Shown here in pieces: positions 1 through 55,059 of a DNA stretch of 63,432 nucleotides (positions are counted from its first letter, which is position 1; each line of letters opens with the position of its first letter). The DNA is from an uncultured bacterium (GTDB taxonomy: Bacteria > CAYUVA01). The position numbers and the translations under genes are program-made. Location of the stretch: contig CAYUVA010000021.1 in NCBI GenBank assembly GCA_964448115.1, positions 1-63,432 on the forward strand. The letters are read 5' to 3'. The notes beneath the pieces were generated by a model, which did no database searches, was not told the origin of the DNA, and saw only the letters and a list, made by a program, of their open reading frames with translations.

Positions 1-3000
1 CACCCGCAGCCGGTATCGATCACCTGTAACCTGGCTGTGTAAGTGCCGATGCCCTCGCTGGCGTAGTTGTAAGTCGGATTGCGCAACTGGGAGTCGAAAA
101 CGCCATCATTGGTGAAGTCCCAGTTGTAGTCATATACCCCAGTTCCGCCGCTAGCGTTGCCCTGGAAGTGGATATACTGGCCGTAAGGTTGTGGGCTATC
201 GCTGCTGGCAGATGCCACCGGCACCGTAACCATCTCGACCAGAGAGATAGTCGTGTCGGAGCAGGTGGTCTCCTCATCGATTATCTCCATAACAGCCGTA
301 TAGGTGCCCTCGCCATAAGGTGTGTAATCGAAGATAGGATTCTGCTCGGTGCTATCCCAGGTGCCATCATTGGTAAAGTCCCAACGGTAGGTATAAGGAG
401 CCTTGCCTCCCTTGCTTCCAGCAGAGCCATAAAACTGTACCGTATTCCCTAGGCATTGGGGACTATCATTGGTAGCCTGTGCATCCGGAGGATCCTTAAT
501 CTCGATTATCATGGTGGTTGTGCCGCTGCAATTGGTGCCGGTGTCGGTAGCCGTTAATCGGCAGGTATAGATGCCAGTGCTTGTATAGGTATGCTGTGGA
601 TTCTGCAGACTGGAATCGGAGTTTCCATCATCGGTGAAGTCCCATGACCAGGTGTAGCTTCCTGTACCCCCAGTCGCCGAGCCTTGGAAGTAGATCGTAT
701 TGTTCACACAGTTGGGTGCCTGGGCGTTTATATCCGGCTGGGGAAGCTCGATGATATATACATCAACGAATTCCTCCTCGTAGCAGCCGGTCTCCCACTC
801 CGCAGCCCTCAACCTGGTCGTGTAGTTACCAGGTCCATCAACCGCAAAGTTGTAATCCACGCTCTGCTCGAAGGCATCGAAGATATCATCATTGGTGAAG
901 TCCCAGAAATAATCGTACCCGGATGCACCGCCGCTGGCAAGCCCAATATAATTTACATTATCCAGCCAACACTTGGGTGAGTTCTCGAAGATCTCGATGC
1001 TCATCGGGTATCCGATGTCGATATTGAGAGTCTCCTCACCGGAGCAGCCGGTCTCCAGATCGACCACCGTAACATGGGCGATATAATGTCCAACTCCCTC
1101 CTGCAGGTAATCATAGGTCGGGCTTTGCTCCGTAGAGTCAATGGTGCCGTCGCTGGTATAGTCCCAAGCATAGCTATAGTTGCTGTCCCCGCCGATAACC
1201 TCAACATAGAAGGTAACCAGGTTCTCCAGGCACTGCGGCGAGTTGCTGTCCGTGTAGAGCGGAAGCTGGGCTGCAATATATACTGTAAATATTTCTTCAT
1301 CTATACAACCAGTATCAGCATCTCGCACCCGGAAACGAACCTCATACTCACCCTCGCCCATTGGCGTATAGTCAAAGGTTGGATTCTGCTGGGTTGAATC
1401 AATAGAACCATCATTAGTGAAATCCCACATGTACTGGTAGTTGCCTCCCGGCGGATCTGCCGAGCCATAGAACTGTACCGGTATCCCTAGGCAGACCGGG
1501 CTGTTGCTGCTCGGATTCGCCTCCGGCTGCTCGTAGATAACGACAGCCGTTGAGGTCTCGGTGGATTTACAGCCGGTATCTACATCCAATACCTCCATAG
1601 TAGCATAATAGGTGCCCGGTCCCTCCAGAAAGTAGTCGTAAGATGGATCTTTCTCGAAGACATCCCAGTTGCCGTCGCTGGTAAAGTCCCACCTGTACTC
1701 GAAGTTTCCGCTACCCCCCTGCACGACGCCGACGAAGTTCACTGTGCTCCCGTAACAGACCGGGGCATTGTGGAATATAGAGGTAGGCAGCGAGGAGACG
1801 ACTCTGACCGCAGTGGTAGCATCGGCAAAGCAGCCGTTGACCGCATCGGTAACCCTTAACCGCGCAGTATAGGAGCCAATGCCATAGCCCGCATAATCGT
1901 AGGTAGTGTTCTTGTCAAAGGCATCAAAAGTGCCATCATCGGTGAAGTCCCAAGCCCAATTATAGCTCCCTGAGCCACCGGTGGCATTGCCGTAAAACTT
2001 GATATCGCCGCCAGCGCACTGCGGGGAGTTGTTGCGAGCAGACGGGAAGGGCGTCTCTCTGATGGTTACCTCAAATGTATGCTCATCCCAGCAGTTACTG
2101 TTGCGATCAGCCACTCGCAATCTCACGGTATAGGTTCCCGGTCCCTCGGCAGAATAGTCGTAAGTGGGATCCTTCTGGGTGGAGTCAAATGTGCCGTCAT
2201 TGGTGAAGTCCCAATAATACAGATAAGAGCCGGTTCCGCCAGATCCCTCGCCATGGAATTGAACATCATCCCCGGAGCAATTGGGATCTGAAGCCCAGCC
2301 AAAGGCATTAGGTGCTGGCAAGACCTCTATGTTTAAGGTATCCTCGCCAACGCAACTCGAGGTCGGAGACCATACAAAGAGCTTTGCCACATAAGAGCCG
2401 GGTCCCTCGGCTGCATAATCATAAACCGGGTTTTGCTCGAAGCTGTCCCAGATGCCATCATTGGTGAAGTCCCACTGGTAGTTGTAGTTCCCGCTGCCAC
2501 CGCCGGTAACCAAGCCAAAGAAGGTTACATTATTCCCGAAGCAGACCGGTGAGTTGGATAACGCCACTGCCGGCAGGTTCAAAACAATATTAACCTGGAT
2601 AACCACCTGGTCGGTACAGCCGGTAACATTATCGGTTACATGCAGCCGAGCATCATAAATACCAATGCCCTCAACCAGATAATCATACACCGGGTTTTGC
2701 TGAGTGCTGTCCCAGATGCCATCATCGGTGAAGTCCCATAAAAATGAGTAATCACCGCTCCCTTGCGAGGCGGTACCGCTGAAATAGACTAGATCGCCAT
2801 AACAGACCGGGCTATTGCTACCAGCGAGTGCGACCACAGTATCCTCGAGGATATGGACGGTGGTGTTATGGTCCCTATAGCAGCCAGTACTCAGGTCGGT
2901 AACCCGTAAAGTTGCATTGTAGTATCCATAAGTGGGATACTCGTATTGAGGATTCTGCTCGTAGGTGTCAAAGGTTCCATCTGTCGTATAGTCCCACTTA

Positions 3001-6000
3001 TACTCATAAACACCGCTGCCACCGAACGCATTACCAGTGAATTGAACCGTCTCTCCATCGCACTTGGGAGAGTCATTGGATGCCTCTGCATAAACGGTAT
3101 TGACCACGACCTCTGCGGTGATCTCATCGTAGCAGACCAGGATATCCTTTCCTTGGAGCTTTTCTCCACCCACCTGTCGATCTACCACACGGACGCGCAT
3201 GGTATAAGTGCCCACGCCCTCAGCATCGTATCCATAGCAGGGAGATGGATCATCGATCACATCCCAAGCGCCGTCATTGGTCCAATCCCAGAGGAACTTG
3301 AAGTCGCCGCTGCCACCGCTGACCGACGGAATAAAGCAAGCCTCTTCGTAAGGCAAGCAGATCGGATTGTTATAATTCAAACTAAGTATCGGCTGTTCAA
3401 ACACTTGTATGGTTAGATTGCGATCCACAACGCACCCGGAGACCAGGTCGGTAACCGTAATAACTGCATTATACGTACCCGGACCCTCCTGGTGATATCC
3501 ATAATCAGTGGTTTGCAGGTAACTATCAACGATGCCATCATCGGTGAAGTCCCACTCGAACTGGAAGTAGCCGGTGCCTCCGCTCACCTGTGCAGAGAAG
3601 GTCATGTTAAGATCCGGGTCGTAGCACATGGGCGCATTGCTAGAGGCGCTAAGCTCGAATCCCTCATATACATTAACCGAGATATACTCCAAAGACTCGC
3701 AAGCCGTATCCTGATCCAACACGCTCAACACGCAGACATAAGCGCCCGGTCCCTCATCCGCATAGTCGTACTGAACGGTTTGACCGGTCGCATCGTAAGT
3801 GCCGTCATTGGTGAAATCCCAGCGGAATGTATAGGTTCCCGAGCCTCCAGAAGCTGACGCGGTAAAGGTGATCGGATTGCCATAGCATCCATCAAGATCC
3901 TCCTTGCCGCCAAGCAGCTTTCTGAGATCGATGATCGGGGACTCGATGATGTTGACATAGACCTGCGTCTCAGCAGAACATTGCCAATCATTATCAAGGA
4001 CGCGAAGGGTTACCAGGTATGTACCGGGTCCCTCGACCTCATAGTTATAAGTAGGATTCTGCAAGGTGGAATCTACCACCTCATCGCTCTGGAAGTCCCA
4101 TTCATAGCTGTAATTGCCAGAGCCAGCAGTTACGATAGCCTGGAATTGAACCGGATCCGGATAACAAACATTGTTATCCGCATGAGCCTCAATGTTCAGC
4201 TCTGGATTTACGATCACCTGGTCGGTGTATGTATCGCTGCAAACGATAAGGTCATAGTCTATTGATACGGTAAGGCTTACCGTGTAGGTACCTACACCCT
4301 CGCTCTGATAGTCATAAGAGGGATCCACCTCATTGGAATCGATTGTTCCATCGCCATCGAAGTCCCACTCGTACAGCCATGTTCCCTCTCCGCCGGTAAC
4401 GGTTGAATTGAAGTCAACCGTCTGCCCCAGGCAGATCGGTCCATTATGAGTGAAACGAACCACTGGCGACTCGAAGACCATGATTGTATGATAGATGTCA
4501 TCATAGCAGTATGGACTGGTGCCCAGGTCTGTGATCCTGAGCCTTACCGTATATGTGCCCGCACCGACATCCATAAAGTCATAGGCTGGATCCTCTTGGT
4601 TGGAATCCCAGGCTCCATCATTGGTGAAGTCCCAAAGATACTGGTATGGACCCGTGCCCTCCTGGGTAAGGTAAGAATCGAACTGCACAACCTGTCCAAG
4701 ACATATTATGGCGGTATAGTTGAAATCCCCCTCCACCTTTGGCTGGATGACTACGGTAAGATTTTGATCCACCGCACACAAGGAGACGACATCCTCAACC
4801 CTGACTTGGGCGGTGTATGTGCCCGGTCCCTCTGCGAGGTAGCCGTATTCGGGATCTTCTATGAAAGCATCCCAAACGCCATCGTTGGTGAAGTCCCAGA
4901 ACCAGTTATAACTTCCCGTTCCTTCTGAGGCTTCGGCATCGAAGTGAACCACATGACCATAGCACTTTGGCGAGTCGCTGGTGGCGGTCAACAATGGCGC
5001 CGGATCGATGGTTATTACATGTGTATCCTCGGAGATGCAGTGATTATTGTTATCCTCCACCTGGAGAAGGATGGTGTATGCCCCGTAGTTCTGATAGGTA
5101 TGCAGCGGATTCGCCTCGAAGGAGTCCCAGGTCGGTGTCATACCATCATACTCAAAGTCCCATCGATAGGTGAAGTCGCCGGTACCATGCTGGACATCGC
5201 TTTGCAGTTGCAGCTCATCGCGCTGGCACCAGTTGTCAGGGGCGATGATGGAAGCAACCGGAGCATCATAGATCTCCACTTGGGCGGTGAAGTCCACCTC
5301 ACAATGCGTCTCGTTTTGCTTGCCAGCCGGTTTGCCGGCAACATCGCCATCTAGCTTCTTCCCTATGTCGGAGTGATCGATCACCCGCAGCAGAACTGTA
5401 TATACACCAGGTCCCTCTGGTAGATAATCATAACTGGGATTTTCATCGTATGAGTCCCAGGTTGGAGTAGATCCATTGTAGTTGAAGTCCCAGTAGTAAT
5501 CGTAGTTCTCGAAGCCACCGTTCACATCGCTTACGAAGTTGACCGTCTCGCCGTAGCACTTGGGAGCATCGTGAGTGAAGGAAACCGTGGGGATAGGATT
5601 AACATAGACGATGATAATGTTCTGATCGAAGCAGTAGTCATCGGCTTTACCGCCACCTAGCTTCTCACCGGTGCGGTTTTCCACCCTGAAGAGCACCTGG
5701 TAAACGCCTGGTCCCTCGACCGTATAGGCATAAGAGGGATCTTTAATGAAAGAGTCCCATTCGGGAGTCCCGCCCTGATAGTCGAAATCCCAGTAATAAT
5801 TATAGCCGGGTATCCAAGGATCAACATTGCCCTGGAACTGCACCGTCTCCAGCGAATAGCAGATAGGTGAGTTGCTGCTCGGAGAGACGACCGGTTGCGT
5901 CATCACTTTGACCACCAGAATATCGGTGTCTGTCTCCATCGTATCCAGGTCGGTTACTTGTCCCCAGCAGTGATAGATGCCCGCTCCCTCCGTGGCATAG

Positions 6001-6230
6001 TCGTAAGCCGGAGCATCACCTGTATAATCAATGGTGCCATCATTAGTATAGTCCCACTCGAATTGAAGGTTCTCCCCTCCGCCGGTTACATGCGGGATAA
6101 AGTGGAAGATGGTTCCGAAGCAGCCCGGATTCTCCTCGCTTGTTATATCCAAGGTTATCGCATAAGCATGCGAGAGACCTGCCAAAAGTAGGCATAAAAA
6201 GAGATAGAGATGTCTATTTGCTGGTTTCAT
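1..6230 (-). CDS. Giant secreted PKD-repeat surface protein (>=2076 aa, truncated by the left window edge)
   Basis: Not in the ORF track because it has no stop in the window. ATG at 6230 with AGGGGG SD; N-terminus MKPANRHLYLFLCLLLAGLSHAYA is signal-peptide-like. The same frame is read at positions 3-5. 23 repeats of ~87 aa, each with a W-D-F/Y/W core (mostly WDFTNDG-like) plus NP/DP-x-Y-x-Y and G-x-Y-x-x-x-L-x-V, typical of PKD domains. Confidence 0.9.
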   Translation of the reverse strand, partial: MKPANRHLYLFLCLLLAGLSHAYAITLDITSEENPGCFGTIFHFIPHVTGGGENLQFEWDYTNDGTIDYTGDAPAYDYATEGAGIYHCWGQVTDLDTMETDTDILVVKVMTQPVVSPSSNSPICYSLETVQFQGNVDPWIPGYNYYWDFDYQGGTPEWDSFIKDPSYAYTVEGPGVYQVLFRVENRTGEKLGGGKADDYCFDQNIIIVYVNPIPTVSFTHDAPKCYGETVNFVSDVNGGFENYDYYWDFNYNGSTPTWDSYDENPSYDYLPEGPGVYTVLLRVIDHSDIGKKLDGDVAGKPAGKQNETHCEVDFTAQVEIYDAPVASIIAPDNWCQRDELQLQSDVQHGTGDFTYRWDFEYDGMTPTWDSFEANPLHTYQNYGAYTILLQVEDNNNHCISEDTHVITIDPAPLLTATSDSPKCYGHVVHFDAEASEGTGSYNWFWDFTNDGVWDAFIEDPEYGYLAEGPGTYTAQVRVEDVVSLCAVDQNLTVVIQPKVEGDFNYTAIICLGQVVQFDSYLTQEGTGPYQYLWDFTNDGAWDSNQEDPAYDFMDVGAGTYTVRLRITDLGTSPYCYDDIYHTIMVFESPVVRFTHNGPICLGQTVDFNSTVTGGEGTWLYEWDFDGDGTIDSNEVDPSYDYQSEGVGTYTVSLTVSIDYDLIVCSDTYTDQVIVNPELNIEAHADNNVCYPDPVQFQAIVTAGSGNYSYEWDFQSDEVVDSTLQNPTYNYEVEGPGTYLVTLRVLDNDWQCSAETQVYVNIIESPIIDLRKLLGGKEDLDGCYGNPITFTASASGGSGTYTFRWDFTNDGTYDATGQTVQYDYADEGPGAYVCVLSVLDQDTACESLEYISVNVYEGFELSASSNAPMCYDPDLNMTFSAQVSGGTGYFQFEWDFTDDGIVDSYLQTTDYGYHQEGPGTYNAVITVTDLVSGCVVDRNLTIQVFEQPILSLNYNNPICLPYEEACFIPSVSGGSGDFKFLWDWTNDGAWDVIDDPSPCYGYDAEGVGTYTMRVRVVDRQVGGEKLQGKDILVCYDEITAEVVVNTVYAEASNDSPKCDGETVQFTGNAFGGSGVYEYKWDYTTDGTFDTYEQNPQYEYPTYGYYNATLRVTDLSTGCYRDHNTTVHILEDTVVALAGSNSPVCYGDLVYFSGTASQGSGDYSFLWDFTDDGIWDSTQQNPVYDYLVEGIGIYDARLHVTDNVTGCTDQVVIQVNIVLNLPAVALSNSPVCFGNNVTFFGLVTGGGSGNYNYQWDFTNDGIWDSFEQNPVYDYAAEGPGSYVAKLFVWSPTSSCVGEDTLNIEVLPAPNAFGWASDPNCSGDDVQFHGEGSGGTGSYLYYWDFTNDGTFDSTQKDPTYDYSAEGPGTYTVRLRVADRNSNCWDEHTFEVTIRETPFPSARNNSPQCAGGDIKFYGNATGGSGSYNWAWDFTDDGTFDAFDKNTTYDYAGYGIGSYTARLRVTDAVNGCFADATTAVRVVSSLPTSIFHNAPVCYGSTVNFVGVVQGGSGNFEYRWDFTSDGNWDVFEKDPSYDYFLEGPGTYYATMEVLDVDTGCKSTETSTAVVIYEQPEANPSSNSPVCLGIPVQFYGSADPPGGNYQYMWDFTNDGSIDSTQQNPTFDYTPMGEGEYEVRFRVRDADTGCIDEEIFTVYIAAQLPLYTDSNSPQCLENLVTFYVEVIGGDSNYSYAWDYTSDGTIDSTEQSPTYDYLQEGVGHYIAHVTVVDLETGCSGEETLNIDIGYPMSIEIFENSPKCWLDNVNYIGLASGGASGYDYFWDFTNDDIFDAFEQSVDYNFAVDGPGNYTTRLRAAEWETGCYEEEFVDVYIIELPQPDINAQAPNCVNNTIYFQGSATGGTGSYTWSWDFTDDGNSDSSLQNPQHTYTSTGIYTCRLTATDTGTNCSGTTTMIIEIKDPPDAQATNDSPQCLGNTVQFYGSAGSKGGKAPYTYRWDFTNDGTWDSTEQNPIFDYTPYGEGTYTAVMEIIDEETTCSDTTISLVEMVTVPVASASSDSPQPYGQYIHFQGNASGGTGVYDYNWDFTNDGVFDSQLRNPTYNYASEGIGTYTARLQVIDTGCG

Positions 6231-7386: not shown

Positions 7387-9774
7387 GTGAAAAAGTACAG
7401 TTTTTTTTATTATATGTTAGGGCTGTTGTTCCTGATTAGCATCTGCTGGGGCGCGACCTGGGAGTGGCGTAATCCATACCCGACAGCCAATAATTTCTAC
7501 GCCACCTTTACTATGGGGTCTGATGATGTATATGTTGTCGGCAGTGCGGGGAGCTTTTATCGATACAACAACGATGAATGGAGCAAGATCCCGACTGGCA
7601 TCCAGTTCGATCTGCGCGGAATAACCACCATCGATGGACAATTAACCCTCTATGGCGATAACGGCACTATCATGAAGTATGATGGCTCTAGCTGGACTGA
7701 CTATTCGGTGCCGTTTGAGCGTCGAGTCGATGATATGGTCGCCTTCGGCACCGAGGATATCTATGCCATAGAAGGTGGAACTAACAAGTTGTGGCATCGC
7801 ACCGGGGGAGTCTGGACATCTTACGAATATGGTTCGCTTGAGTTAACTACTATCACCGGATCTAATCCGGGCGAGATCTTCATTGCAGGACATGCTGGCA
7901 AGGTGGGAAGGCTTTTGGGGATGGCATATAGTGCACTCGATGTTGTATATGATGAGCCTGAGAAGGTTAACTTCAAGCAATTTTTGCAGATTAACGAGGA
8001 TTTGATTTTCCTGTTCGGTCCCAAGAGCGACGAGGATATAACATTAGTCTTTATATACAATATAGACTTCGAGTACTGGTATCTACACAGCACCATTCCA
8101 ACCCAGGGCTTTCGAGCTGCAGCCTCGGCGGGGACCGGCATGGTCATTGCCATCACCGATGATGGCATCTATCGGTTGAATACAGATATCTGGGTGTTAG
8201 AGGATATCCCGGTGCAGGATATGTATAACGCAGCGGTTTACTCCCCGACCAATTATTGGGTTTGTGGCGACAGGGGGCAACTGCTTAATGTTCGTGAGGG
8301 CTTTGCATTATGGAAATCTACTAATCTCACCCCTACAGGCGCCCTATACAAGCTGCACGGAACCGACTTCAACAATATCTGGTCGGTAGGGAGTGGAGAT
8401 AACATACTGCGCGGTTTATCAGGCTTATGGACAAAGATGTACACCGAGATACCATCGGTTTATCATGGGGTTCACTCCACCTCGGAGAGCAATACCTGGA
8501 TAGTCGGCGAGGGTGGCGCTGCATATCGTTTTAATGGAATGACCATGGTATATACACCTTATGAGGAGACGGTCAGGGATCTACTGATAGATGAGACTGG
8601 CATAACTCGAGCCGTGGAGCCGGTGCTTAAATCGGTATCATCGGTCTCTTCAAATGATACTTATGCGATCACCAGCGATAAGGTGCTAAAATTCGATGGT
8701 GTTGAATGGACAATCTTCTACCAGCCTTCCAGCCAAGTCAACTTCAGCGGCATCCACGCCTTCAATACAACCAACATCTGGGTTTGGGGCGATTATACAG
8801 GAGATCAAAAGAGCCTCCTGCGCTATAACGGAACTACCTGGGAGGATATCGTTGTGCCTTATGCCAAGGATAAGGCGAGGGATCTATTAGATATGACTCC
8901 ACTGACAGTAAATGACCTTCTTTTCTTAACCAAGCAGAACGATATCCTGAGGTACTCGACCAGTGGCTGGACTAGGCTGCCCATGCCTATAATCTCAAAA
9001 AGCCCTGCCAAGGATCTCCTCATCGATGAGACCGCGGTCATTCGTCATGGCAACCTTCATGGCATAACCGCGGTTGATGAATCGAATATTTGGGCTGTTG
9101 GAGACTATGGTAATGTTTACTACTTTGATGGCGAGTCCTGGGCATCGGTTAATCTGGAGATAAATCTTCCTCTCTATGATGTTTTCGCTGCCTCCTATTC
9201 TGATGTTTGGGTTGCCGGTAGTAATGGAGCGCTCTTATATTCTAGCGATGCGGCGGTTATTCCTACTCCGACTCCGACACCCTCCATGACTCCAACTATT
9301 TCTCCGACACCAACTAACACATCGCCAACTACTGACACCCCGACACCAACCAGGACGCCGACCAGGACACGCACACCGACCAGGACTCCCTCAAGAACCC
9401 CCACCAATACACCAACACCTACTCCCAATGAGAAACCTGAGATAATGCTTGCCGGTTACATGGGTCCTTCCACTAACTATACCTCTGCCGGGGGAGGAGA
9501 TATTTACCTATTGGCTTATGCGATGGATGATTATGGGTTCGAGAGCATCGATAATATCGAGATGTATCTCAGCCAGGGCACCGTGCCTCTGGGAGTATAT
9601 CTTTATGATGATGGCAACCATAATGACTTTGGAGCACACGATGGCTTGTTCGCCTTCTATGCTTCAGGTGTTGCGCCCGGTGCACCGGTTGGCATGTATC
9701 TAATAGAGCTTATCGCTACTGATTCGGGGGGGCTTAAATCACTGATCTGGCCATACCTAGATGTAACACAATAA
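7387..9774 (+). CDS. Secreted beta-propeller-like repeat protein with Thr/Pro linker and conserved C-terminal domain
   Basis: GTG start with AAGGAGG SD; signal peptide; repeats of the type N/D-I-W-x-V-G-x-x-G...Y/F-D/N-G-x-x-W; TPTP linker; C-terminal PEIMLAGY...WPYLDV domain. Confidence 0.8.
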   Translation: MKKYSFFYYMLGLLFLISICWGATWEWRNPYPTANNFYATFTMGSDDVYVVGSAGSFYRYNNDEWSKIPTGIQFDLRGITTIDGQLTLYGDNGTIMKYDGSSWTDYSVPFERRVDDMVAFGTEDIYAIEGGTNKLWHRTGGVWTSYEYGSLELTTITGSNPGEIFIAGHAGKVGRLLGMAYSALDVVYDEPEKVNFKQFLQINEDLIFLFGPKSDEDITLVFIYNIDFEYWYLHSTIPTQGFRAAASAGTGMVIAITDDGIYRLNTDIWVLEDIPVQDMYNAAVYSPTNYWVCGDRGQLLNVREGFALWKSTNLTPTGALYKLHGTDFNNIWSVGSGDNILRGLSGLWTKMYTEIPSVYHGVHSTSESNTWIVGEGGAAYRFNGMTMVYTPYEETVRDLLIDETGITRAVEPVLKSVSSVSSNDTYAITSDKVLKFDGVEWTIFYQPSSQVNFSGIHAFNTTNIWVWGDYTGDQKSLLRYNGTTWEDIVVPYAKDKARDLLDMTPLTVNDLLFLTKQNDILRYSTSGWTRLPMPIISKSPAKDLLIDETAVIRHGNLHGITAVDESNIWAVGDYGNVYYFDGESWASVNLEINLPLYDVFAASYSDVWVAGSNGALLYSSDAAVIPTPTPTPSMTPTISPTPTNTSPTTDTPTPTRTPTRTRTPTRTPSRTPTNTPTPTPNEKPEIMLAGYMGPSTNYTSAGGGDIYLLAYAMDDYGFESIDNIEMYLSQGTVPLGVYLYDDGNHNDFGAHDGLFAFYASGVAPGAPVGMYLIELIATDSGGLKSLIWPYLDVTQ

Positions 9775-21148: not shown

Positions 21149-21754
21149 TCAGCAATTGAAGTCGCATTCGTGGCTTATCCAGTTGCCATCGAGCAAGCCG
21201 TTGCACCAGCAGTCCATATTGTAGCCTAAAGCCTCGCCCCAGCCATGAAATTCAACTGTTCCGCTCATATTGCCTTGTTCATCAATGGTGATGTCTGCTG
21301 AAAGATATACAGTTACTCCCTCGAATTCATCAGGCTCGAGGGTCAGCTCGATGTGTATTACATCGCCTGTGTAGGTAGTCTGGTATGGGAAACGGTAGCA
21401 GAATCCCATGGACTGGACCTCGATGAAGCCGTATAGTCTTTCACTATCCAGGTTGACCTGCACTAATCCGTGGATGGTTCTCACAATGTTTAATATTGTT
21501 TCGCAATCGTAAGAACCACCTGCTCCCCAACAGCCATCAAGATTGATCAGCAAAGAATAACAACCCTCGATCCCCTCGTGAGGTATGGTGGGGGTCGGGA
21601 TAGGCGAAGGATTCGGGGTTTGCGTCCCTTCGGGGGAGTTTTGACTGCTATAGCTATCGCTGTCATTATCCTCGCATGAGATGATCAAGAAAAATGACAT
21701 TGATACAGCCAGGGCTATCGCTATAGTAAGTATCTTGTTCTTATTCATGTTCAT
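21149..21754 (-). CDS. Hypothetical lipoprotein
   Basis: Lipobox-like FLIISC after a hydrophobic stretch; Pro/Thr linker; Cys-rich mature domain. Confidence 0.65.
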   Translation of the reverse strand: MNMNKNKILTIAIALAVSMSFFLIISCEDNDSDSYSSQNSPEGTQTPNPSPIPTPTIPHEGIEGCYSLLINLDGCWGAGGSYDCETILNIVRTIHGLVQVNLDSERLYGFIEVQSMGFCYRFPYQTTYTGDVIHIELTLEPDEFEGVTVYLSADITIDEQGNMSGTVEFHGWGEALGYNMDCWCNGLLDGNWISHECDFNC

Positions 21755-21787
21755 CCATTCCTCGCGTATTATTATTGTCTTTCTGAA

Positions 21788-21860
<73 letters not shown>

Positions 21861-32402: not shown

Positions 32403-33668
32403 CTACTCGACATTCCCCTGCTGGTCGGTTTTTATTACATAAATATCCTTGCCTCCAGCGCCGAATGATTCGGTATATCCGACGATTATGTATCCACTTC
32501 CATGGGCAGGTTTGACGCAGCGACCCTCATCATTGCCCGCGCCCCCGTAGGTCTTCTCCCACTGGAGCTCCCCATTGGCAGATGTCTTTATCAAATAGAC
32601 ATCAGCAAGACCTGAGGCTGTGGTGGAGCCGACCACTACATATCCTCCATCATCAGCGGCACATAATGCATAAGCCTTTTCGTCAGCGGCACTGCCGTAG
32701 ATGTGTTGCCATTGCTGGTTCCCCTCGGCATCGACCTTGAGCAGCCAGAAATCTTGAACCGAGTCGTTTGCTGGATCAGTATATCCCACTGCGATGAATC
32801 CTTCATCGCTAGCCGGAATGATGTCAACCAGGTGGCAGTGAGGGTTAGGTGAAAAGTCTTTTTTCCACAAAAATCCAGCAGAGGCATGTATCTTTGCCAA
32901 CCAGCTACTTGTATTTCCGGTCATAATATCAACCGTGTAACCGCAGACTATGTATCGACCTTCCTGGGATAAACAAGCGCCGGTGGCATACTCATGGAGT
33001 CCTTCTTCTCCCATGGTAAGCTCCCATTCCTGGTTGCCCTGGATGTTAGTTTTTATAAATCCTGCATCCATGTTATCCGGGCTACGCCCCACAATGCCTG
33101 CAAGGAAAAAGCCATTGTCAGTCGCTTGGGCTAATCCATAACCCTCATCATAATATGCCCCTCCATGGCTCCTTTCCCACATCTTGCCGCCGTTATTGGC
33201 AAGCTTTATCAGAAAAATATCGCTGAATCCGACGCCAAGAGAACTGCCCCCAACCAGCACAAAACATTCATCAAAGGTGCTTATCATCGCATTGGCAAGG
33301 ATTGTGCTATCATAACCGTATTGCTTCTCCCATAGCACTTTTCCAGTCGCATCGACCTTTATGACCACGATATCGTTACTATTGCTGTAGGAGGTAGAAT
33401 TTCCGGCAATCACGTAACCGAGGTCCGAGGTAGTAATCACGGACACTCCCTGGTCATCGTGTTCAAGCCCGAAGGCAGCGCTCCAACTGGCAGGCAGGGG
33501 AGTGCTTGAGGGCGTGGGTGTAGCAGTTGATGGCGGAGAGGTCGGCGTCGGCGTATGCTCCGGAGTTCCATTGGAAGAGCCGTCTCCGCTGCATGAAAGA
33601 AGGAAAACGGCTGCTACCAACGCAGCCAGGGTTACGGTTAACAGCATCGGTTGGATATTCTTTCTCAT
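32403..33668 (-). CDS. Lipoprotein with Thr/Pro linker and beta-propeller-like repeats
   Basis: Lipobox LLSC; ~50-aa repeats W.K.YG...D.G......DGGY...G.T......D.YL.K.D..G. Confidence 0.8.
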   Translation of the reverse strand: MRKNIQPMLLTVTLAALVAAVFLLSCSGDGSSNGTPEHTPTPTSPPSTATPTPSSTPLPASWSAAFGLEHDDQGVSVITTSDLGYVIAGNSTSYSNSNDIVVIKVDATGKVLWEKQYGYDSTILANAMISTFDECFVLVGGSSLGVGFSDIFLIKLANNGGKMWERSHGGAYYDEGYGLAQATDNGFFLAGIVGRSPDNMDAGFIKTNIQGNQEWELTMGEEGLHEYATGACLSQEGRYIVCGYTVDIMTGNTSSWLAKIHASAGFLWKKDFSPNPHCHLVDIIPASDEGFIAVGYTDPANDSVQDFWLLKVDAEGNQQWQHIYGSAADEKAYALCAADDGGYVVVGSTTASGLADVYLIKTSANGELQWEKTYGGAGNDEGRCVKPAHGSGYIIVGYTESFGAGGKDIYVIKTDQQGNVE

Positions 33669-33823: not shown

Positions 33824-36800
33824 TCAGTATATGCTTATGTTCAGATAGGGCCAGAATTGACTCACCTGTCCATTGTCACACCTTGCCACAATCTCCAATA
33901 GGTCTTGAATCGGCGGTATGCCCCCTTGCACCGGGCTATCTTGTAGCCAGTAGATGCCTGCCGACGGGTCAACGACCGGCAGCACTACGCCGGTGGGAAC
34001 ACCCATGTAGTAAAGCTCGACCCCTTCGATGGAGCCTTGCGGACTTGAAGCGACCATGGCGAAGATATCCATCGATCCGCCGTCTGCGCTGGTGATGTAA
34101 GTATCCCAGTACCCCGCAAGCATTATCCTGGGATCGCACGGCGTGTAGGTCGGGTTGGAAGATACGATGAATGAATCCTGCGCGCTCGCCTCGAACATAT
34201 CGGACATCGGATCCCAGGCGCTGACATGGGCGGTGTTTATCAGATGGTCTGAATTGCCGATCTGCCAGACCGATGTATCATAGATGCCTGCCGAGTAGGC
34301 TATGCTCCATTTCCCAGGCTCGGCGGGCAGTTCATCGTAAGCCCACGAACAGCTCGTTGTCGTGCCTCTCGATGTGTTGATGCCGTCAGGATAGATATAA
34401 TCGAACCTTGCCGGACCGATGTCTGTGTCGTAATTGCCAACGAAGAATGTCTCCTCAGTCGAACCCGATAGTGTGAAATCAAACAGTTTCTCACCGGTGG
34501 TGTTGATGTTGATACAGACCATCCCCTTGGGGATGATCTCGGCGCCCTCGGTGATCCTGAGTTGATAGCCGTTCTCGTCGTTACCGGTGGTAGTTTTCAC
34601 CCTGAGCACATAGAAACCCGGCTGCTCGATCTCGAAGGCTGGCACCCAGGTCTCATCAAGTGCCGGATCGCTGCCGAAACAGACCTGGTCTATCAACTCA
34701 TACTTGGAGTATAGGTAAAAACAGGTGTTGGTGTCCCAGGGAGAGCTGTTGTTCTCGTCGTATGCGTTGTAGGTATCCGGGTCGAAGACCTGTAGTGATT
34801 TCAAGCCCGGCTCGATCACCTCGACCAGGTACTCGTATTGATGAATCGGATCGCCGAGGCAACTGCTCGCCCGGGGACCGAATATGGAAAGAGTGAGACC
34901 AGAGACATTTGGGTACAGCTCGTAGAAACCATCCCTGATCACGCCTTTCTGCCAGTAGGCTGCCTTGTCCAGGCTGACCATGGCGTCAAAGCTGATATTC
35001 ATATCGGCACCCGGCGAAAGCTGATCCAGCTTCCATCTTATCCAGGTGTCATTATCGCTGGTAACATAATAGGAATCCGCAACCGGATCAGCCGTATCGG
35101 GCAGGAACTGGAGACCCTCCGGCAGGATATCGGTGATATTGAGATCGTAAAGCAGCACATTGCCATCATTGTAAACCTTGATATTCACGGAGACTATATC
35201 TCCTATATCGCCGTATTCGCTAGAGAATTGCTTGCTGATACCAATAGATGGCAGGTATTGCGGCGTTCCCGTGGCAGTGGGAGTGTGGCTCGGAAGAGCC
35301 GTATGCGTGCTTGTTGGCATGTCGGTAGGGGTGCCGGTGGGGCTTTCGGTGGGGATAGATGTAGCCGTCGAGGTCGGTAGGTCGGTCGGGGTCATGCTCG
35401 GAGTATCTGTGGGAATAGCGGTAGCTGTCGCAGTGGGTGTGGCCGAGGGTATAGCGGTTGGGGTGTCGGTAGGAGTCATGGTCGGTGAGTCGGTCGGGGT
35501 TGCTGTCGATGTCGGCACCACATAGACCAGCATGAAAGCCATGTCCAGGGTCTGGTTGTAATCGGGATGACTCTGTCCATATTCCAGTCGCGTTTCCCAA
35601 TTATCCCCCTCGTCACCGGATTGCACAGCCGATGCCAGGTTGTGCGAGCTAGCCGTATGCCAGCCCCATAAATCATGACCGTTCTTGGCATCTGCCTTGG
35701 CGTCGAAATGCGCGCTTATGCCCAGCCAATAGGTGGTGTTGATATCCTGATCCCAGGGAACGGTGAGGTTGCATTCGTATTGGAAGATATGCTCGTATTG
35801 CGTTGGATAGAACCAATCTGGCATGGTGCAATAGTATGTCTGCCGGTAATCAAACACTTGTTCGTAGGCGATCATCATACCGGGCTGCGGGAAGCCAAGC
35901 GGTCCCTGGGGAACATGTTCAAACCATTTCAGCTCGAACCATACAGGCAGGTATAATGGCGTTGGAACCGGTCCCGGATCATAGCTCATGTAGTCGAAAT
36001 AGGAACCCCACCACCTGATCTTGACGATCGGATAACCGTTCTCGCACAACCAGTCATCGGCAAGTAAGGACATATCGAAGTTGTTGCTGCGGATATCGTA
36101 TCCATCGATTATATCAGGGGGCTGTAACCATTTATACTGTTCTGAGAAGGTAGGCGTAACTGTGGGCGTATAGGTTGGAACCTCGGTCGGAGTATCGGTG
36201 GGGGTCACGGTCGGAGTATCGGTGGGAATAGTGGTAGCTGTCGCAGTGGAAGTCGCCGTCGGTGTAGCGGTAGGAATCTCCGTAGGAGTCGTGGTCGGAG
36301 TACCAGTGGGAATAGCGGTAGCGGTCGCAGTGGGGGTCGCAGAGGGTGTCGTGGTCGGCGTGTCTGTCGGGGTCATGGTCGGCGTAAAAGTGGAAATAGC
36401 GGTAGTTGTCATCGTGGGAGTCATGGTTGGTGAGTTGGTCGGGGTTGCTGTCGATGTCGGCACCACATAGACCAGCATGAAAGCCATGTCCAGGGTCTGG
36501 TTGTAATCGGGATGACTCTGTCCATATTCCAGTCGCGTTTCCCAATTATCCCCCTCGTCACCGGATTGCACAGCCGATGCCAGGTTGTGCGAGCTAGCCG
36601 TATGCCAGCCCCATAAATCATGACCGTTCTTGGCATCTGCCTTGGCGTCGAAATGCGCGCTTATGCCCAGCCAATAGGTGGTGTTGATATCCTGATCCCA
36701 GGGAACGGTGAGGTTGCATTCGTATTGGAAGATATGCTCGTATTGCGTTGGATAGAACCAATCTGGCATGGTGCAATAGTATGTCTGCCGGTAATCAAAC

Positions 36801-38176
36801 ACTTGTTCGTAGGCGATCATCATACCGGGCTGCGGGAAGCCAAGCGGTCCCTGGGGAACATGTTCAAACCATTTCAGCTCGAACCATACAGGCAGGTATA
36901 ATGGCGTTGGAACCGGTCCCGGATCATAGCTCATGTAGTCGAAATAGGAACCCCACCACCTGATCTTGACGATCGGATAACCGTTCTCGCACAACCAGTC
37001 ATCGGCAAGTAAGGACATATCGAAGTTGTTGCTGCGGATATCGTATCCATAGAATATATCAGGGGGTTGTACCCATTTGTATTGCTCTGAGTAAGTAGGC
37101 GTAGCCGTGGGGGTATCGGTTGGAAGCTCGGTCGGCGTATCGGTTGGAATGGTGGTCGCTGTCGCCGTGGGAGTTGCCGAGGGTATAGTGGTCGGCGTGT
37201 AGGTAGATGTCATGGTCGGGGTCGTGGTCGGTATCCCCGTGGCGGTGTGGGTCGGCGTGTAGGTAGGGGTCATGGTTACTGTCCCGGTGGGAACGGTAGT
37301 TGCTGTCATGGTGGGTGTCCCTGTGTGCGTTGCCGTTGGTATATTGGTCGGGGTCATGGTTGGGGTTGAAGTAGGTGTTGCCGTGGAAGTGGCTGTTGGT
37401 GTCGAGGTTGGAGTACTGGTCGTGGTGTTGGTTGGCGTTGCCGTGGGAGTCGCCGTCGGGGTAGCGGTGTCAGCAAAGCAATCTATGACTGAGTAAAACG
37501 ATAGATCGTATTGGTGAGATAATATGGGACATAAATCTATCCAGCTTGAACCCGGATTCAGGTAAACAGTGCAATCAGAACATGGGATATCATTTAGTAC
37601 TAAATCTATATTGCAGTTGTCAGGCTCATGGTATTTGATGGCTGCAAAATAGATCTCTCCAGGCTGCGGGCTAAAGCAGCAGTCAAAACCTTGCAGATCA
37701 AAACCGATCCACCATAATCCGATACTGTCTAAAGAAAAACTGACCTTATAAACATCACACAGTATTGTACCAGGTCGATAACACCCCGGATTGCCCGGAT
37801 CTTCATAAGCACTGTAGAGATAGAATGTCATATTCAGATCACAGGGAGCATTATTTACGGAAAGGAGTTGAGCTATGCTATAAACACAGAAGTTGTCACA
37901 TGAACTACAATAGTCGGGATTCAGCATCAATGCATAGGTCTCGTTGCCATCAAAGCTGTTGCTCCAATAAAACATGTAATCCTGTTTGCCAAACAGGCAC
38001 AAGTCCTTAGACTTATAGTCTGTCTGGTTCTGGGTGATGTAATTGATTGGCTGATCATCAGGCAGGGCAGTCACGCCTGTTTTACCGAGCGATTGCTTGC
38101 CTTCACCGTGCACCATTCCCAGTAATAAGATCATAAGAATGCTTATAGCTAGAATGGAGAAATATCTTTTTCTCAT
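33824..38176 (-). CDS. Large secreted modular protein (Cys-rich N-domain, Thr/Pro linkers, duplicated domain, DUF11-like domain, conserved C-terminal domain)
   Basis: AGGGAG SD and signal peptide; two KW.QPPD...ADDWLC...WWGSY domains; ISKQ...GD.V...I.V.N.G...L....ITD.LP.GL DUF11-like motif; C-terminal PRIMLAGY...WPYLNI. Confidence 0.85.
35492..37050. repeat. Direct repeat: 35492-36105 and 36437-37050 (614 bp, offset 945)
   Basis: Protein copies are identical and shadow ORFs in other frames are also identical (35675-35956 vs 36620-36901; 35803-36018 vs 36748-36963). Confidence 0.92.
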
Positions 38177-47560: not shown

Positions 47561-49297
47561 ATGATTATGGATTATAGAAAACGCGGACTTTTCATGTTAA
47601 CGGCATTCAGCCTATTATTATCGTGTTACTGTACCTGCGGTGCATCGATGTTCTCCTTTGCTATCGAGACTGAGACGGCTACCCAGACGCCGACAGGGAT
47701 GCCTAGCAATACTCCAACGCCGACAGCGACCGAGGAACCGACATCCACCCCTACGCCAACGCCTATGGACCCGCCAGGTCTTTTGGTGCCCGAAGACGAG
47801 GCTCGCTTCGGTTACAATAGTGTACCACCCTTATTCGAGTGGGAACAATCGAGCAATGCAGCCTACTATGTTATTCAGATATCAGCCAGTGAAACCTTCG
47901 ATATCAATGCAAGCGCCAGTTTCTACACCGAGGCAACCAGTCTCGACCTCGGCTTCTTCATTCCCCGAGGAGCCTGGAGCAATATTGCCATAACCTTATA
48001 CTGGCGGGTTGCTTATGTGGATGCTCAGGACAACACCAGCGATTACAGCCCAAGCAGGGTACTATACAAGACCGATATCATCCCTCCTGAGCCTCTGAAG
48101 CCTGCCGACGATGCACGCTATGGCGCCCCTAGCGTGCCGGCTGTTCTCTCCTGGAGCCAAGGAGTTGGAAGCATCGCTAACTACATGGTTCAGGTGAGCA
48201 TCGACGAGGACTTTGCTTCAGAATCGAGCGGAACGCTGATTGCAATGGAAAATTGGCTCGACCTGGCAACGGTCATCGACCAGCAGACCTGGGACGCACT
48301 TAAACTCAAGCTCTATTGGCGGGTCTGTGCCATTGATTTCCAAGCACGACCAAGCCCTTGGAGCCATGCTAACTATTTCTACAAATCGACCCTGCCAAGC
48401 CCCAATCTTCTGATGCCAAGCAATGCCTATCGTTTCGGCGCAAGGGAAGAGCCGATGACCAGGCTGCAATGGGGAGAGGTGGATGGTGCGCAGTCGTACA
48501 TGGTCGAGTTTGCACGAGATGAGCGATTCAAACACCCGCTCGGTTCGATCATCGTCTCTGGTACCGAGCTTGACTTTACCCCTTATTTTGACCTGAATAG
48601 CTGGTATATTTTCCATGGGAGGTATTACTGGCGGGTCTGTGCAATAGATAATGACTGGCTTTATGGTCCCTACAGTTCAGCCTGGGAGTTTAGCAAAAAT
48701 CGCTGGCAGAGGTACGCTGCCTACGGCGACAGCATTACCATGGGATATGGGGTGGAATACTACGAGATGGGCTGTTTCTGCGGATACCCGCCGCTGCTAC
48801 TGGCTGAGCTTAGGGAACATTATGGCTCGCAGGTTCAGATTGTGCTGTGGGGACTGGGGGGCGCAAAAAGCAAGGATGGATATGATACAGCAGAATTATT
48901 GTTGAAGAACGACTTTGTCAGCCACATACTTATCCTGTTCGGCATAAACGATATTGTTGATTCCGGCAACTGCGATCCCCCATTCGAATGTCGCACCGTT
49001 GAACACCTCAATAACATAATAAAGCTTGCTCGAAGCTATAAGGCACAGCCGTATGTTGGACAGCTCATACCTGTAAATCCAGAGGGCGGACAGGCGATAC
49101 ACCAGGATAATGTGGATGCGATGAACCGCCAGATCAGGGTATTGGCTACCCTTTCCGATACTCCCTGCGCGGATCTAAATACCCCCTTCTGGGAGGCTGC
49201 AAGCGATATATCGATCTTCTTCAAGGACTGGGGACATCCCAACGACATGGGATATGCTATCATGACCATCGGATGGCTGAGCGTGCTAGCTCCATGA
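47561..49297 (+). CDS. Secreted SGNH/GDSL hydrolase with three FN3/Ig-like repeats
   Basis: Signal peptide, TPTP linker, three ~100-aa repeats ending YWRV.A.D, then YGDSIT, GIND, DWGHP. Confidence 0.85.
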   Translation: MIMDYRKRGLFMLTAFSLLLSCYCTCGASMFSFAIETETATQTPTGMPSNTPTPTATEEPTSTPTPTPMDPPGLLVPEDEARFGYNSVPPLFEWEQSSNAAYYVIQISASETFDINASASFYTEATSLDLGFFIPRGAWSNIAITLYWRVAYVDAQDNTSDYSPSRVLYKTDIIPPEPLKPADDARYGAPSVPAVLSWSQGVGSIANYMVQVSIDEDFASESSGTLIAMENWLDLATVIDQQTWDALKLKLYWRVCAIDFQARPSPWSHANYFYKSTLPSPNLLMPSNAYRFGAREEPMTRLQWGEVDGAQSYMVEFARDERFKHPLGSIIVSGTELDFTPYFDLNSWYIFHGRYYWRVCAIDNDWLYGPYSSAWEFSKNRWQRYAAYGDSITMGYGVEYYEMGCFCGYPPLLLAELREHYGSQVQIVLWGLGGAKSKDGYDTAELLLKNDFVSHILILFGINDIVDSGNCDPPFECRTVEHLNNIIKLARSYKAQPYVGQLIPVNPEGGQAIHQDNVDAMNRQIRVLATLSDTPCADLNTPFWEAASDISIFFKDWGHPNDMGYAIMTIGWLSVLAP

Positions 49298-53088: not shown

Positions 53089-55059
53089 ATGAGCTTTGTT
53101 TCATTGTTCAAGCGGAATCTTCTCCTTGCGATGATTATTGTACTAGTCGCCCTATGCTTCCGAGGACTTCTTTATTTTGAGATAAAGGATGTGGCATTCA
53201 TCAAGGCTCCCATACTCGACAGCCATTTCTATCAAGAGCAGGCAAAACAGATACTCGGGGAAGATATCGATCCCCGTTTGTCATACAAGCACAAGCCATT
53301 CTTCATGTCCCCCGGCTACCCTTATTTTCTGGCGCTCACCTCGCTTATCCCGGCTGTTTCCGACCTCGAGGCAGCCATATTTACCCAGTATCTTATAGGG
53401 GCTGCACTTGCCGTGTTGTTATTCTTAATAACAGCCAGGTTCACCACCCTGAAAATCGCCTTTATCACTGGCATGTTGGCTGCCATCTATCGGCCGCTGG
53501 CTTTCTATGAGAGCCACCTGCTGGCTGATGCACTGGCATGTTTTTTCGTTGTCCTTATGCTGCACCTGCTATATATCGCCCTAGATTTCGCCAAGCCTGG
53601 AATAGGTCTTTTTTTTCTCTCCGGCGTAATCGGTGGTGTAAGCGTGCTGATGCGCACTAATTATTTGCTTTTTTGCCTGCTGGTGCCCCTGGGGGTGTGG
53701 CTCAGTTCTAACCGCTTCAATGCTAGGGAGAGCATTGCCCGCTCGCTTCTAGTGTTGGCCGGAGTGTTGTCGGTTATCATGCCGGTTATCATCCGTAATG
53801 CGCTGCTCCCAGGTGGCGCGCCACTGATCACTAATAATTTGGGTATAAATCTCTATATCGGCAACAACCCGCGAGCTAACGGCTCATACAAGCCTCTAAT
53901 GGAGGCGGTTGCGTCTTATGATCCCGAGGCTGCCGACTATGCTCAACAGCAAGCCGGCAAGAAGATGACCAGTATAGAGGTTTCAGCTTTTTACAGGAAC
54001 AAGGCGCTCGAATTCATCGCAACTCATCCGCTGAAGGCACTCAAGCTCACCGCAAGGAAGGCGCTGATGCTCTTTAACGACTACGAGATCCCGCAGATAT
54101 ATAATATCCATTATTATGCTCGTATAAGTCGGCTGATTTCCGCACCCTGGCTACCTACATTTGGGTGGATATTCGTGCCCGGAGCGGTGGGCATGGTAAC
54201 CGGATTAAGAAACTGGCGCAGATACATCTTGATATACCTGCTAATTCTTTCCGTGAGCGCCTCGGTGATACCTTTTTTCATCACCGCCCGTTTTCGGCTT
54301 GCTATAGCTGTTTCGCTGATGATATTCAGTGGCATCGCAATTCAAAGGATGCTCGATCTGGCGCGCTATGGAAGGATTAAGGAGTTATCCTTGAGCCTGC
54401 TTGTAGCTGTGGTCGCCTTGATAATATGCTTACTGCCTCTGCCGGTAGATTTCACCGAGTCCGGCATGGTCTATGCGCACGCTCAGCTCGCCTCCGCCTA
54501 CCGCAAGCTGGGCGATGATGAGGCAGCCCTGGCTGAGATGCTCAAATTCCTTGAGCATGAGCCGAATAACTCTCGGATGTTGTATAATGTAGGCTATCTG
54601 AACCTGGTTTTGGGCAGGCTATCGGAGGCGGAGCGCTATCTTGAGCGGGCAGTATCAGCAGATGCCGATTTCGCCAACGCCTGGGGGCTTTTATTCGAGG
54701 TTAGATATCGGCTGGGCAAAAAATTGGAGGCTAAGAGCGCACTTACGAAGTTAAAAGCCATAATGCCCCAACATCCCAAGATAGATTACAACCTGGGCGT
54801 GTTGTGCATGGAATTGGGGGATCTACACTGTGCAATGCAAGCTATGCAACGCTCTTTGGTGCAAAGCCCTGATGACCCGCTTGCCATAAGCAACCTGGCT
54901 ACTCTATATGCCAATATCGGGGAGTTGAAACGAGCCAGGGAGCTATACCAACGAGCGCTTGAGCTGGTGCCTGAGCTATCACAGGCAAAAAACAACCTGG
55001 CAAGGCTAGAGAAGATCATGGACACGCAGACCACGATTCAATATGGGAATGATAGGTGA
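53089..55059 (+). CDS. GT-C fold membrane glycosyltransferase (ArnT/PMT-like) with C-terminal TPRs
   Basis: D..FY...A and PGYPYFL in the first loop, ~11 TM helices, GINLYIGNNP, RFR; several TPRs. Confidence 0.82.
   Translation: MSFVSLFKRNLLLAMIIVLVALCFRGLLYFEIKDVAFIKAPILDSHFYQEQAKQILGEDIDPRLSYKHKPFFMSPGYPYFLALTSLIPAVSDLEAAIFTQYLIGAALAVLLFLITARFTTLKIAFITGMLAAIYRPLAFYESHLLADALACFFVVLMLHLLYIALDFAKPGIGLFFLSGVIGGVSVLMRTNYLLFCLLVPLGVWLSSNRFNARESIARSLLVLAGVLSVIMPVIIRNALLPGGAPLITNNLGINLYIGNNPRANGSYKPLMEAVASYDPEAADYAQQQAGKKMTSIEVSAFYRNKALEFIATHPLKALKLTARKALMLFNDYEIPQIYNIHYYARISRLISAPWLPTFGWIFVPGAVGMVTGLRNWRRYILIYLLILSVSASVIPFFITARFRLAIAVSLMIFSGIAIQRMLDLARYGRIKELSLSLLVAVVALIICLLPLPVDFTESGMVYAHAQLASAYRKLGDDEAALAEMLKFLEHEPNNSRMLYNVGYLNLVLGRLSEAERYLERAVSADADFANAWGLLFEVRYRLGKKLEAKSALTKLKAIMPQHPKIDYNLGVLCMELGDLHCAMQAMQRSLVQSPDDPLAISNLATLYANIGELKRARELYQRALELVPELSQAKNNLARLEKIMDTQTTIQYGNDR

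Follow-up and report, generated by a model that had tools for sequence, protein, structure and literature searches.

The window analysed here is the whole of contig C21 (CAYUVA010000021.1; 63,432 nucleotides, nt) of the draft genome of an uncultured bacterium (3.98 Mb in 86 contigs, 94.45% complete, 0.46% contamination), and it encodes two large proteins that terminate in copies of the same domain, referred to below as the end-domain. Our results describe the end-domain as a lineage-specific, strongly acidic, immunoglobulin (Ig)-like end-module borne by most of the large exported proteins of this organism, usually behind a flexible Pro/Thr tether. Its function we infer: with a confidence that stays somewhat short of even, we favour a self-pairing and probably Ca2+-binding docking module, which would organise the exoproteome on Pro/Thr tethers, rather than a classical export signal. 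New here are the genome-wide census of the domain, the controlled searches in which markers of the type IX secretion system (T9SS) were not found, the exchange of tags on C25 peptidases, the acidic character and fixed tail of the domain, and its predicted pairing through the signature strands.

The first carrier, an open reading frame (ORF) of 795 amino acids (aa) at 7387..9774 (+), consists of a predicted Sec signal peptide (first 22 residues, 7387..7452, +), a beta-propeller-like body for which all Pfam matches were of propeller type and below threshold, a Pro/Thr-rich linker detected by a composition scan (residues 624-682, 9256..9432, +) and, immediately downstream of the linker, copy 1 of the end-domain (112 aa, 9436..9771, +), which is followed directly by the stop codon (9772-9774). 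The second carrier, an ORF of 1450 aa at 33824..38176 (-), has a predicted Sec signal peptide (first 24 residues, 38105..38176, -), two near-identical DUF7901 modules placed between Pro/Thr stretches (Pfam, 209.9 bits, 2 stretches), an unassigned region and copy 2 (102 aa, 33827..34132, -; stop codon 33824-33826). Both copies were recovered by the genome-wide profile described below (E 2.6e-69 for copy 1 and 1e-60 for copy 2), and when the C-terminal pieces of the carriers were compared by BLASTP they shared 43 of 123 positions (35% identity, E 1e-10), so that the two genes and the two copies lie where the initial annotation of this DNA had placed them. Alignment of the full-length proteins was limited to the end-domain (E 1e-7) and to low-complexity Pro/Thr stretches; the bodies are thus unrelated to each other, as had been proposed, and the translated N-termini of both carriers fit a Sec signal peptide by eye and pass a crude signal-peptide heuristic. 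The Thr/Pro linkers attributed to both proteins were found directly upstream of the domain in the first carrier only, since the last marked stretch of the second one ends at residue 957, about 390 residues before its end-domain. The second carrier also contains a very recent internal tandem duplication of the DUF7901 module plus linker, in which residues 363-592 and 678-907 are identical at 224 of 230 aa and 673 of 690 nt.

A profile built from just these two copies and run against the 30,492 stop-to-stop frames of the genome found 185 domains in 153 frames, and the likeness of the two copies is therefore far beyond chance. After refinement the profile detected 202 domains in 166 frames, of which 132 contained one copy, 33 contained two and one contained four. 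Most of the domains (141 of 202) ended no more than 5 residues from the stop codon, and 145 of the 166 frames terminated in a copy. According to a crude gene call, the carriers make up 162 of 2938 genes (5.5%) and 12.4% of the coded residues, with a median length of 834 aa compared with 352 aa for all genes. A signal-peptide-like start was recognised by the same heuristic in 139 of the 166 carriers, 10 more being cut by contig ends, versus 572 of 1715 other long frames. The median pairwise identity among copies was 31% (range 11-72%), which indicates that the copies are old. The cargo, both here and in database relatives, included C25, S8, M14 and C14 peptidases, GH31, PLD and purple acid phosphatase domains, FG-GAP, Kelch, BNR and PQQ propellers, beta-helices and lamin-tail domains. 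The expectation was thus borne out that such a profile would return numerous copies, strictly C-terminal and on proteins with signal-peptide-like starts whose cargo is diverse. As to the outcomes named in advance as fatal to the proposal, none occurred in full: the copies are not confined to two, they are not mostly internal or cytoplasmic, and the only named family that they match, NF041940, is itself uncharacterised.

Pro/Thr stretches were detected in 171 genes, 128 of which are carriers, and directly upstream of 92 of 200 copies genome-wide. They were also found in 8 non-carriers that have a lipobox-like motif and in which the stretch begins within the first 70 residues. The three lipoproteins encoded in the window (32403-33668, -; 21152-21829, -; 47561-49297, +) all have a Pro/Thr stretch straight after the lipobox, and the profile search revealed no copy of the end-domain in any of them, in agreement with the initial annotation. 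With Pro/Thr stretches either before the end-domain or behind a lipobox, the tether is therefore often beside the end that would be held. The 421-aa lipoprotein (32403..33668, -), in which translation and composition scan show a lipobox, a Pro/Thr stretch (residues 34-63) right behind it and a propeller-like body without an end-domain, is an alternative layout, with an N-terminal anchor plus tether. It belongs to the only neighbour family that was enriched near carriers, that of the propeller-like lipoproteins, 6 of whose 8 members lie no more than 2 genes away from a carrier (uncorrected p 8e-4). The carrier genes themselves are scattered along the contigs (10 adjacent pairs versus 8.6 expected), and in the neighbour enrichment carried out in this genome nothing resembling machinery, and no clustering with any conserved gene, was found. 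At 53089-57425 (+) the window encodes a membrane glycosyltransferase of PMT_2 type, to which TPR repeats are fused, and behind it a membrane protein resembling YfhO. Given the 171 genes with Pro/Thr stretches, the tethers are obvious candidates for O-glycosylation.

Conservation, structure and pairing were analysed with an alignment of 42 paralogous copies. P1 and G7 are invariant in it, and Y8, D58, G60, D64, D69, P106 and L108 are each kept in at least 90% of the copies. Two signature strands frame the domain: in copy 1 these are E-I-M-L-A-G-Y-M-G (9439..9465, +), which corresponds to the family motif P-x-I-x-x-G-Y, and ..I-W-P-Y-L-D-V-T-Q (9745..9771, +). A W-P-Y-L-type motif was present in the last 14 aa of 120 of the 162 carriers, with only 3-4 residues following it in 105 of these 120, and the last residue is E or D in 74 of the 162. 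The domain is markedly acidic: its net charge has a median of -8 to -10 and its isoelectric point is about 4.2, compared with a proteome median of 7.04. Between the two strands, copy 1 has an Asp-rich loop, LYDDGNHNDFGAHDG (9601..9666, +), which probably binds Ca2+. This loop is the sole part of the domain that resembles the NCBIfam choice-of-anchor X model NF041940, whose match covers residues 56-73 and reaches 16 bits, below the cut-off of 25. The LYDDG..D..DG motif had been read as an insert in copy 1 resembling choice-of-anchor X; the resemblance stands at this sub-threshold level, whereas the loop turned out to be the norm of the family and to have been lost in copy 2, in which the alignment has a gap at this place and NF041940 gives no match. 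Across the 42 copies, the 37-position model matched 40 at E<=1, 37 at E<=0.05 and 18 at or above the 25-bit cut-off. Pfam gave no match at E<=10 on copies 1 and 2, and only weak matches of Ig type among the 42. On sequence grounds, then, the end-domain lies outside Pfam and is partly touched only by one uncharacterised NCBIfam motif model.

The AlphaFold2 model of copy 1 is a 7-strand Ig-like sandwich, with a predicted local distance difference test score (pLDDT) of 93.2 and a predicted template modelling score (pTM) of 0.83. Foldseek found nothing at E<=1e-3 with this model, the best rows being the Ig-like C-terminal domain of the sulfite dehydrogenase SorT (5k3x_A, E 4.7e-3), and VIA-align found no chain among 48,161 at Z>=8; its best score (Z 6.9, root-mean-square deviation 2.9, 86 aligned residues) was tied with many Ig and fibronectin type III (FnIII) domains. 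So generic a fold would be expected of a passive spacer, stabiliser or solubiliser that was spread by domain shuffling in one lineage and has no sorting, docking or binding role. The internal position of some copies, the failure to find a partner or machinery and the occurrence of related Asp-loop Ig repeats as plain tandem repeats in Zixibacteria, KSB1 and others agree with it as well. We nevertheless think this explanation unlikely. Confinement to the last position, as in 145 frames here, is not what spacers normally show, nor would they normally keep lineage-specific end motifs invariant across paralogues that share 31% identity, and the repeats found outside the lineage lack exactly the end strands. 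Moreover, a stand-alone copy of the domain has been kept as the best match in each of 11 positive genomes of the phylum CSSED10-310, as detailed below.

When copy 1 was modelled as a homodimer, the interface score ipSAE was 0.68 (0.67-0.69 in three runs) versus 0.00 for the best of 3 controls, the runs agreed in at least 98% of the contacts and the pLDDT of the partner was at least 81. The mark used for this score is attained by 20 of 30 proteins whose solved structures are pairs of one chain, compared with 1 of 23 whose structures are single chains, although these counts apply only roughly here, where our own alignment of paralogues was used. The predicted interface is formed by residues 2-10, 13-18, 83-90 and 104-112 and takes in both lineage-specific signature strands (the C-terminal one being residues 104-112) as well as most of the most conserved columns. 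That such an interface is fixed across paralogues with 31% identity suggests, if the model is right, that the copies share a partner or pair crosswise rather than each forming a private homodimer. A natural tandem pair of 264 aa was modelled with a pTM of 0.82 and a linker pLDDT of about 57, and this pTM suggests that tandem copies may pack against each other.

The same structural data bear on a different role, in which the end-domain would be a polymer-binding module similar to a carbohydrate-binding module (CBM), tying the exoenzymes to an external substrate or to a matrix glycan or lipopolysaccharide of the cell's own, perhaps through Ca2+. A catalytic body, a Pro/Thr linker and a C-terminal beta-sandwich of about 100 aa constitute the classical CBM layout of cellulases, which is the layout of the carriers; the domain has conserved aromatics and an Asp-rich loop, the tied structural rows include CBM and glucan-binding domains (2c4x, Z 6.1; 3ie4, Z 5.8) and tandem copies would gain in avidity. 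Against this, no CBM family was matched, the cargo is mostly not carbohydrate-active (propellers, peptidases, FG-GAP), the conserved aromatics are located in the predicted protein-protein interface and not on an open face, and an acidic domain is ill suited to bind anionic envelope polymers directly, without cations as a bridge. We therefore regard polymer binding as very doubtful.

Position within the protein is not invariably C-terminal. Five proteins bear the end-domain just behind the signal peptide, one of them in the order signal peptide, domain, Pro/Thr linker and cargo, and some copies have PKD domains after them. In the two-copy proteins, the nearest relative of the first copy was another first copy in 15 of 31 cases and that of the last copy another last copy in 21 of 31, the other copy of the same protein being the nearest relative only once; by sequence, two distinct conserved subtypes exist, one for the first and one for the last position of a pair. 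The W-P-Y-L motif is kept equally in the internal first copies. In two-copy relatives from the databases (P0045, P0061, P0080, P0139 and others), the linker between the copies is often not Pro/Thr-rich, and a short conserved Trp-containing helix was observed (H138-147 in the P0009 model). The N-terminal, tandem and PKD-followed use of the domain, together with the predicted pairing of its end motifs, is the reason why we favour a docking or pairing module over a C-terminal export signal.

Beyond this genome, a profile search of 1.84 billion cluster representatives gave 2182 proteins with E<=1e-3, of which 832 had E<=1e-10, and 110 of the best 150 representatives terminate in a copy. Among 40 comparison genomes, related to this one only at the level of taxonomic domain, many full-length copies were detected in G022 only (26 matches). 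In CSSED10-310, the phylum of G022, 11 of 14 genomes were positive at E<=1e-10 with 4-49 matches each, and 17 of 20 sampled frames stop 0-3 residues past the end-domain; one further contig with the domain is labelled Coatesbacteria. Each of the 11 positive CSSED10-310 genomes had as its top match a small stand-alone protein of 171-264 aa, composed of a signal peptide, a stretch of 44-109 residues and the domain, and an orthologue of 186 aa is present in the genome studied here (C4:99847-100404). A possible lipobox Cys is the majority residue among 7 aligned orthologues. The synteny of the stand-alone copy is kept only within CSSED10-310, where its neighbours are housekeeping genes (FabF, KhpA, SelA and others). 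In Zixibacteria, KSB1 and other groups, only partial tandem Ig repeats were found, which cover profile positions ~35-113 and have neither the P-x-I-x-x-G-Y start nor the W-P-Y-L end. A wider superfamily of Asp-loop Ig domains thus exists, of which the end-domain family is a specialised branch. A word-index protein search gave 36 matches, all titled 'hypothetical protein'. None of the papers listed for choice-of-anchor deals with this end-domain and the phrase 'choice-of-anchor X' gave no literature match, nor did searches on Coatesbacteria with secretion and on new sorting domains return relevant papers; the text and table of PMC8248873, which deals with CSSED10-310, hold nothing on sorting.

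The organism is a diderm, with 4 Omp85 genes, and the known sorting systems were sought accordingly. Por_Secre_tail (PF18962) had no match in this genome and none on the 42 copies, compared with 74 matches in G004, 122 in G035 and 20 in G039. The SprA_N model found nothing here or in G022, while the same search recovered G004 and G035, and the PorV model likewise found nothing here or in G022 while recovering G004, G035 and G039. A SprA-like query from G035 reached G004 at 1e-91 and had no match here or in the three CSSED10-310 genomes G022, G045 and G050. The GldM and PorP/SprF models were uninformative, because they matched no genome at all, those of T9SS type included. A PorU-like query from G035 led to a single C25 protein here, matched weakly at 23% identity over 393 aa, which is no clear orthologue. 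Similarly, the PorV-like protein of G035, which itself matches Pfam PorV, weakly matched a family of 13 barrels in this genome, and none of the scanned members matches Pfam PorV: of the 12 that were scanned, 10 are FadL/TodX and 2 are TraF_2. A carrier is located no more than 3 genes away from seven of the 13 barrels, a weak association. This genome also has six secretin genes versus 2 in G004. The number of barrels (ten of them of FadL/TodX type) and that of secretin genes are both high for a 4-Mb genome.

No sortase was matched in this genome, although the control was positive in 3 Gram-positive genomes. One exosortase was found, XrtH (TIGR04177, 184 aa, 96.8 bits versus a cut-off of 86). 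It is part of a complete small exosortase H system (C2:144711-148799 and C6:11000-11704), in which a neighbouring choice-of-anchor J protein of 958 aa terminates in a hydrophobic helix and a basic tail, and a separate 1826-aa protein has an IPTL-CTERM tail (TIGR04174, 21.9 versus a cut-off of 20.5). A short exosortase of the same size was present in all four end-domain genomes tested (this one and three of CSSED10-310) and was not found in G004. We discarded the exosortase as the machinery of the end-domain, since XrtH, with its own substrate of IPTL-CTERM type, constitutes a separate small system; after the end-domain, the carriers have no hydrophobic helix, basic tail or sorting motif. Dockerin, cohesin and SLH models gave no match on copies 1 and 2 at E<=10 or among the 42 copies, the genome not having been searched for cohesin or SLH proteins, and solved T9SS C-terminal domains (CTDs) were absent from the structural rows listed, tied at Z 5.7-6.9, which is an absence from the list and not a test. 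The claim that the domain falls outside the known families therefore held, in that no T9SS, SLH, dockerin or PEP-CTERM model matched it, and the translocon or sortase that might have been expected to co-occur with it did not appear in the marker searches.

The C25 peptidases are informative with regard to T9SS tails. All six C25 peptidases of this genome are in end-domain carrier frames, while in G004 at least 5 of the 6 C25 frames, and in G035 at least 12 of the 17, have Por_Secre_tail or FlgD_ig downstream in the frame itself. The end-domain is absent from these two genomes, which are rich in T9SS tails, and the reverse is true of this genome and G022. This exchange of tags on C25 cargo, together with the reciprocal distribution, indicates that the end-domain holds the place that T9SS tails have elsewhere. 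In G022, however, the end-domain is tied to only 2 of 14 C25 frames, and no complementary distribution was found within CSSED10-310, where none of five genomes, including three without the end-domain, has Por_Secre_tail.

These observations bear most directly on the possibility that the end-domain is an export tag, that is, a folded domain recognised by an outer-membrane translocon or attachment complex that replaces T9SS and is either unrecognised or of secretin type. Such a tag would account for the extreme C-terminal position in 145 of 166 frames, for the fixed 3-4 residue tail past W-P-Y-L, for the different tags on homologous C25 cargo, for the lack of T9SS tails here and in G022 and for the excess of secretins, and the share of tagged genes is of the order seen in the neighbouring genomes, where the Por_Secre_tail matches given above come from 2.6 Mb (G004) and 3.4 Mb (G035). 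We consider it rather unlikely all the same, although it is a serious rival. The SprA_N, PorV and SprA-like searches were negative both here and in CSSED10-310, no clear PorU was found, the FadL-like barrels do not match Pfam PorV and the carriers are not clustered with any conserved gene. In addition, N-terminal, tandem and PKD-followed copies would be intolerable for a C-terminal signal, and W-P-Y-L is conserved to an equal degree in internal first copies. The lineage-specific export or surface-attachment signal put forward in the initial annotation is thus upheld as regards a terminal module on exported proteins of diverse cargo, and weakened by the missing machinery, by the other positions that are used and by the predicted pairing of the end motifs.

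According to the docking reading that we favour, Sec would take the carriers across the inner membrane, as their signal peptides suggest, and the outer membrane would be crossed by a route other than T9SS, for which the secretin-type systems of this organism are at most candidates. Outside the cell, one copy is predicted to associate with another, both contributing the edge strands P-x-I-x-x-G-Y and W-P-Y-L. This pairing could take place inside one chain in the tandem-copy proteins, and in the single-copy proteins between chains or with the conserved small stand-alone copy. The exoproteins would in this way be joined together or docked near the cell on their tethers, and might be retained at the surface. 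The logic would be that of dockerins with a self-pairing module, rather than that of a signal read by a translocon.

Several points weigh against this docking scheme. No anchored receptor was found, the stand-alone copy of this genome having no lipobox. The tagged share of 5.5% and the type of cargo match those of the T9SS tails of neighbouring genomes, so that an export tag fits these facts equally well. The pairing is a prediction made with an alignment of paralogues, and modelling of Ig-like domains is known to produce edge-strand dimers as an artefact. The conserved edge strands could serve folding or recognition by another machine. A combined scheme, in which the end-domain would be an address tag that sends about 160 proteins through an undescribed non-T9SS route, possibly a secretin, and then docks them at the surface by CTD-CTD pairing, has in our judgement a low probability. 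If true, it would represent the first modular and transferable secretion signal for a secretin-type pathway and the equivalent in this lineage of what T9SS is in Bacteroidota-like bacteria.

Other features of the window were also noted. A giant PKD-repeat protein (3-6230, -) contains 14 PKD_4 stretches in 2076 aa, and its C-terminus lies beyond the contig start; no 5'-truncated carrier frame elsewhere in the genome matches it. A radical SAM/SPASM protein of 825 aa, which has a long extension at its N-terminus (58694-61171, +), adjoins a TPR-CHAT protein (61419-63386, -) at the contig end.

About an eighth of the coding capacity of this organism is spent on tagged proteins, for which no database family describes the domain and no searched sorting machine was found to serve. 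If the end-domain is a docking module, it would be a small self-pairing unit that could be borrowed for enzyme assembly; if it is an export tag, an outer-membrane pathway not known so far would be implied for rare, uncultured phyla, represented here by this lineage, by CSSED10-310 and by at least one contig labelled Coatesbacteria. In both cases, the domain provides a simple rule to recognise the exported proteome of these organisms in metagenomes.

Compared with known systems, the end-domain shares with choice-of-anchor X (NF041940) the central loop L-x-D-D-G-x-x-G-D-x-x-A-G-D-G-x-Y, whereas the model spans only about a quarter of the domain, mostly through its positions 1-25, and leaves the signature end strands outside. 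We take the choice-of-anchor name to mark a domain upstream of alternative C-terminal anchors, while here nothing follows the domain, 141 of 202 copies having 5 aa or fewer between their end and the stop. The top Foldseek rows (5k3x_A, query TM 0.45) were those of the Ig-like C-terminal domain of sulfite oxidase and SorT, which has a role in homodimerisation, but the match is weak (18% identity), Mo-co_dimer does not match the end-domain, and cargo and cellular context are unrelated. T9SS CTDs (PF18962, FlgD_ig-type) have in common with it a sandwich of about 7 strands with an Ig-like fold, the extreme C-terminal position on signal-peptide proteins, the diversity of cargo and a comparable share of the proteome, with C25 peptidases bearing one tag or the other depending on the genome. 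They differ in that the sequences do not match, that SprA and PorV, which were detected in the T9SS-type controls, were not found here, and that the end-domain is longer (~110 aa), acidic, also used in tandem or N-terminally, and predicted to pair with itself. Dockerins follow the same logic of diverse secreted enzymes, a flexible linker and a small terminal module of Ca2+ type, with occasional tandem or non-terminal placement; a dockerin, however, is a helical EF-hand-like pair, whereas the end-domain is a beta-sandwich whose predicted partner is not a cohesin but another copy of itself.

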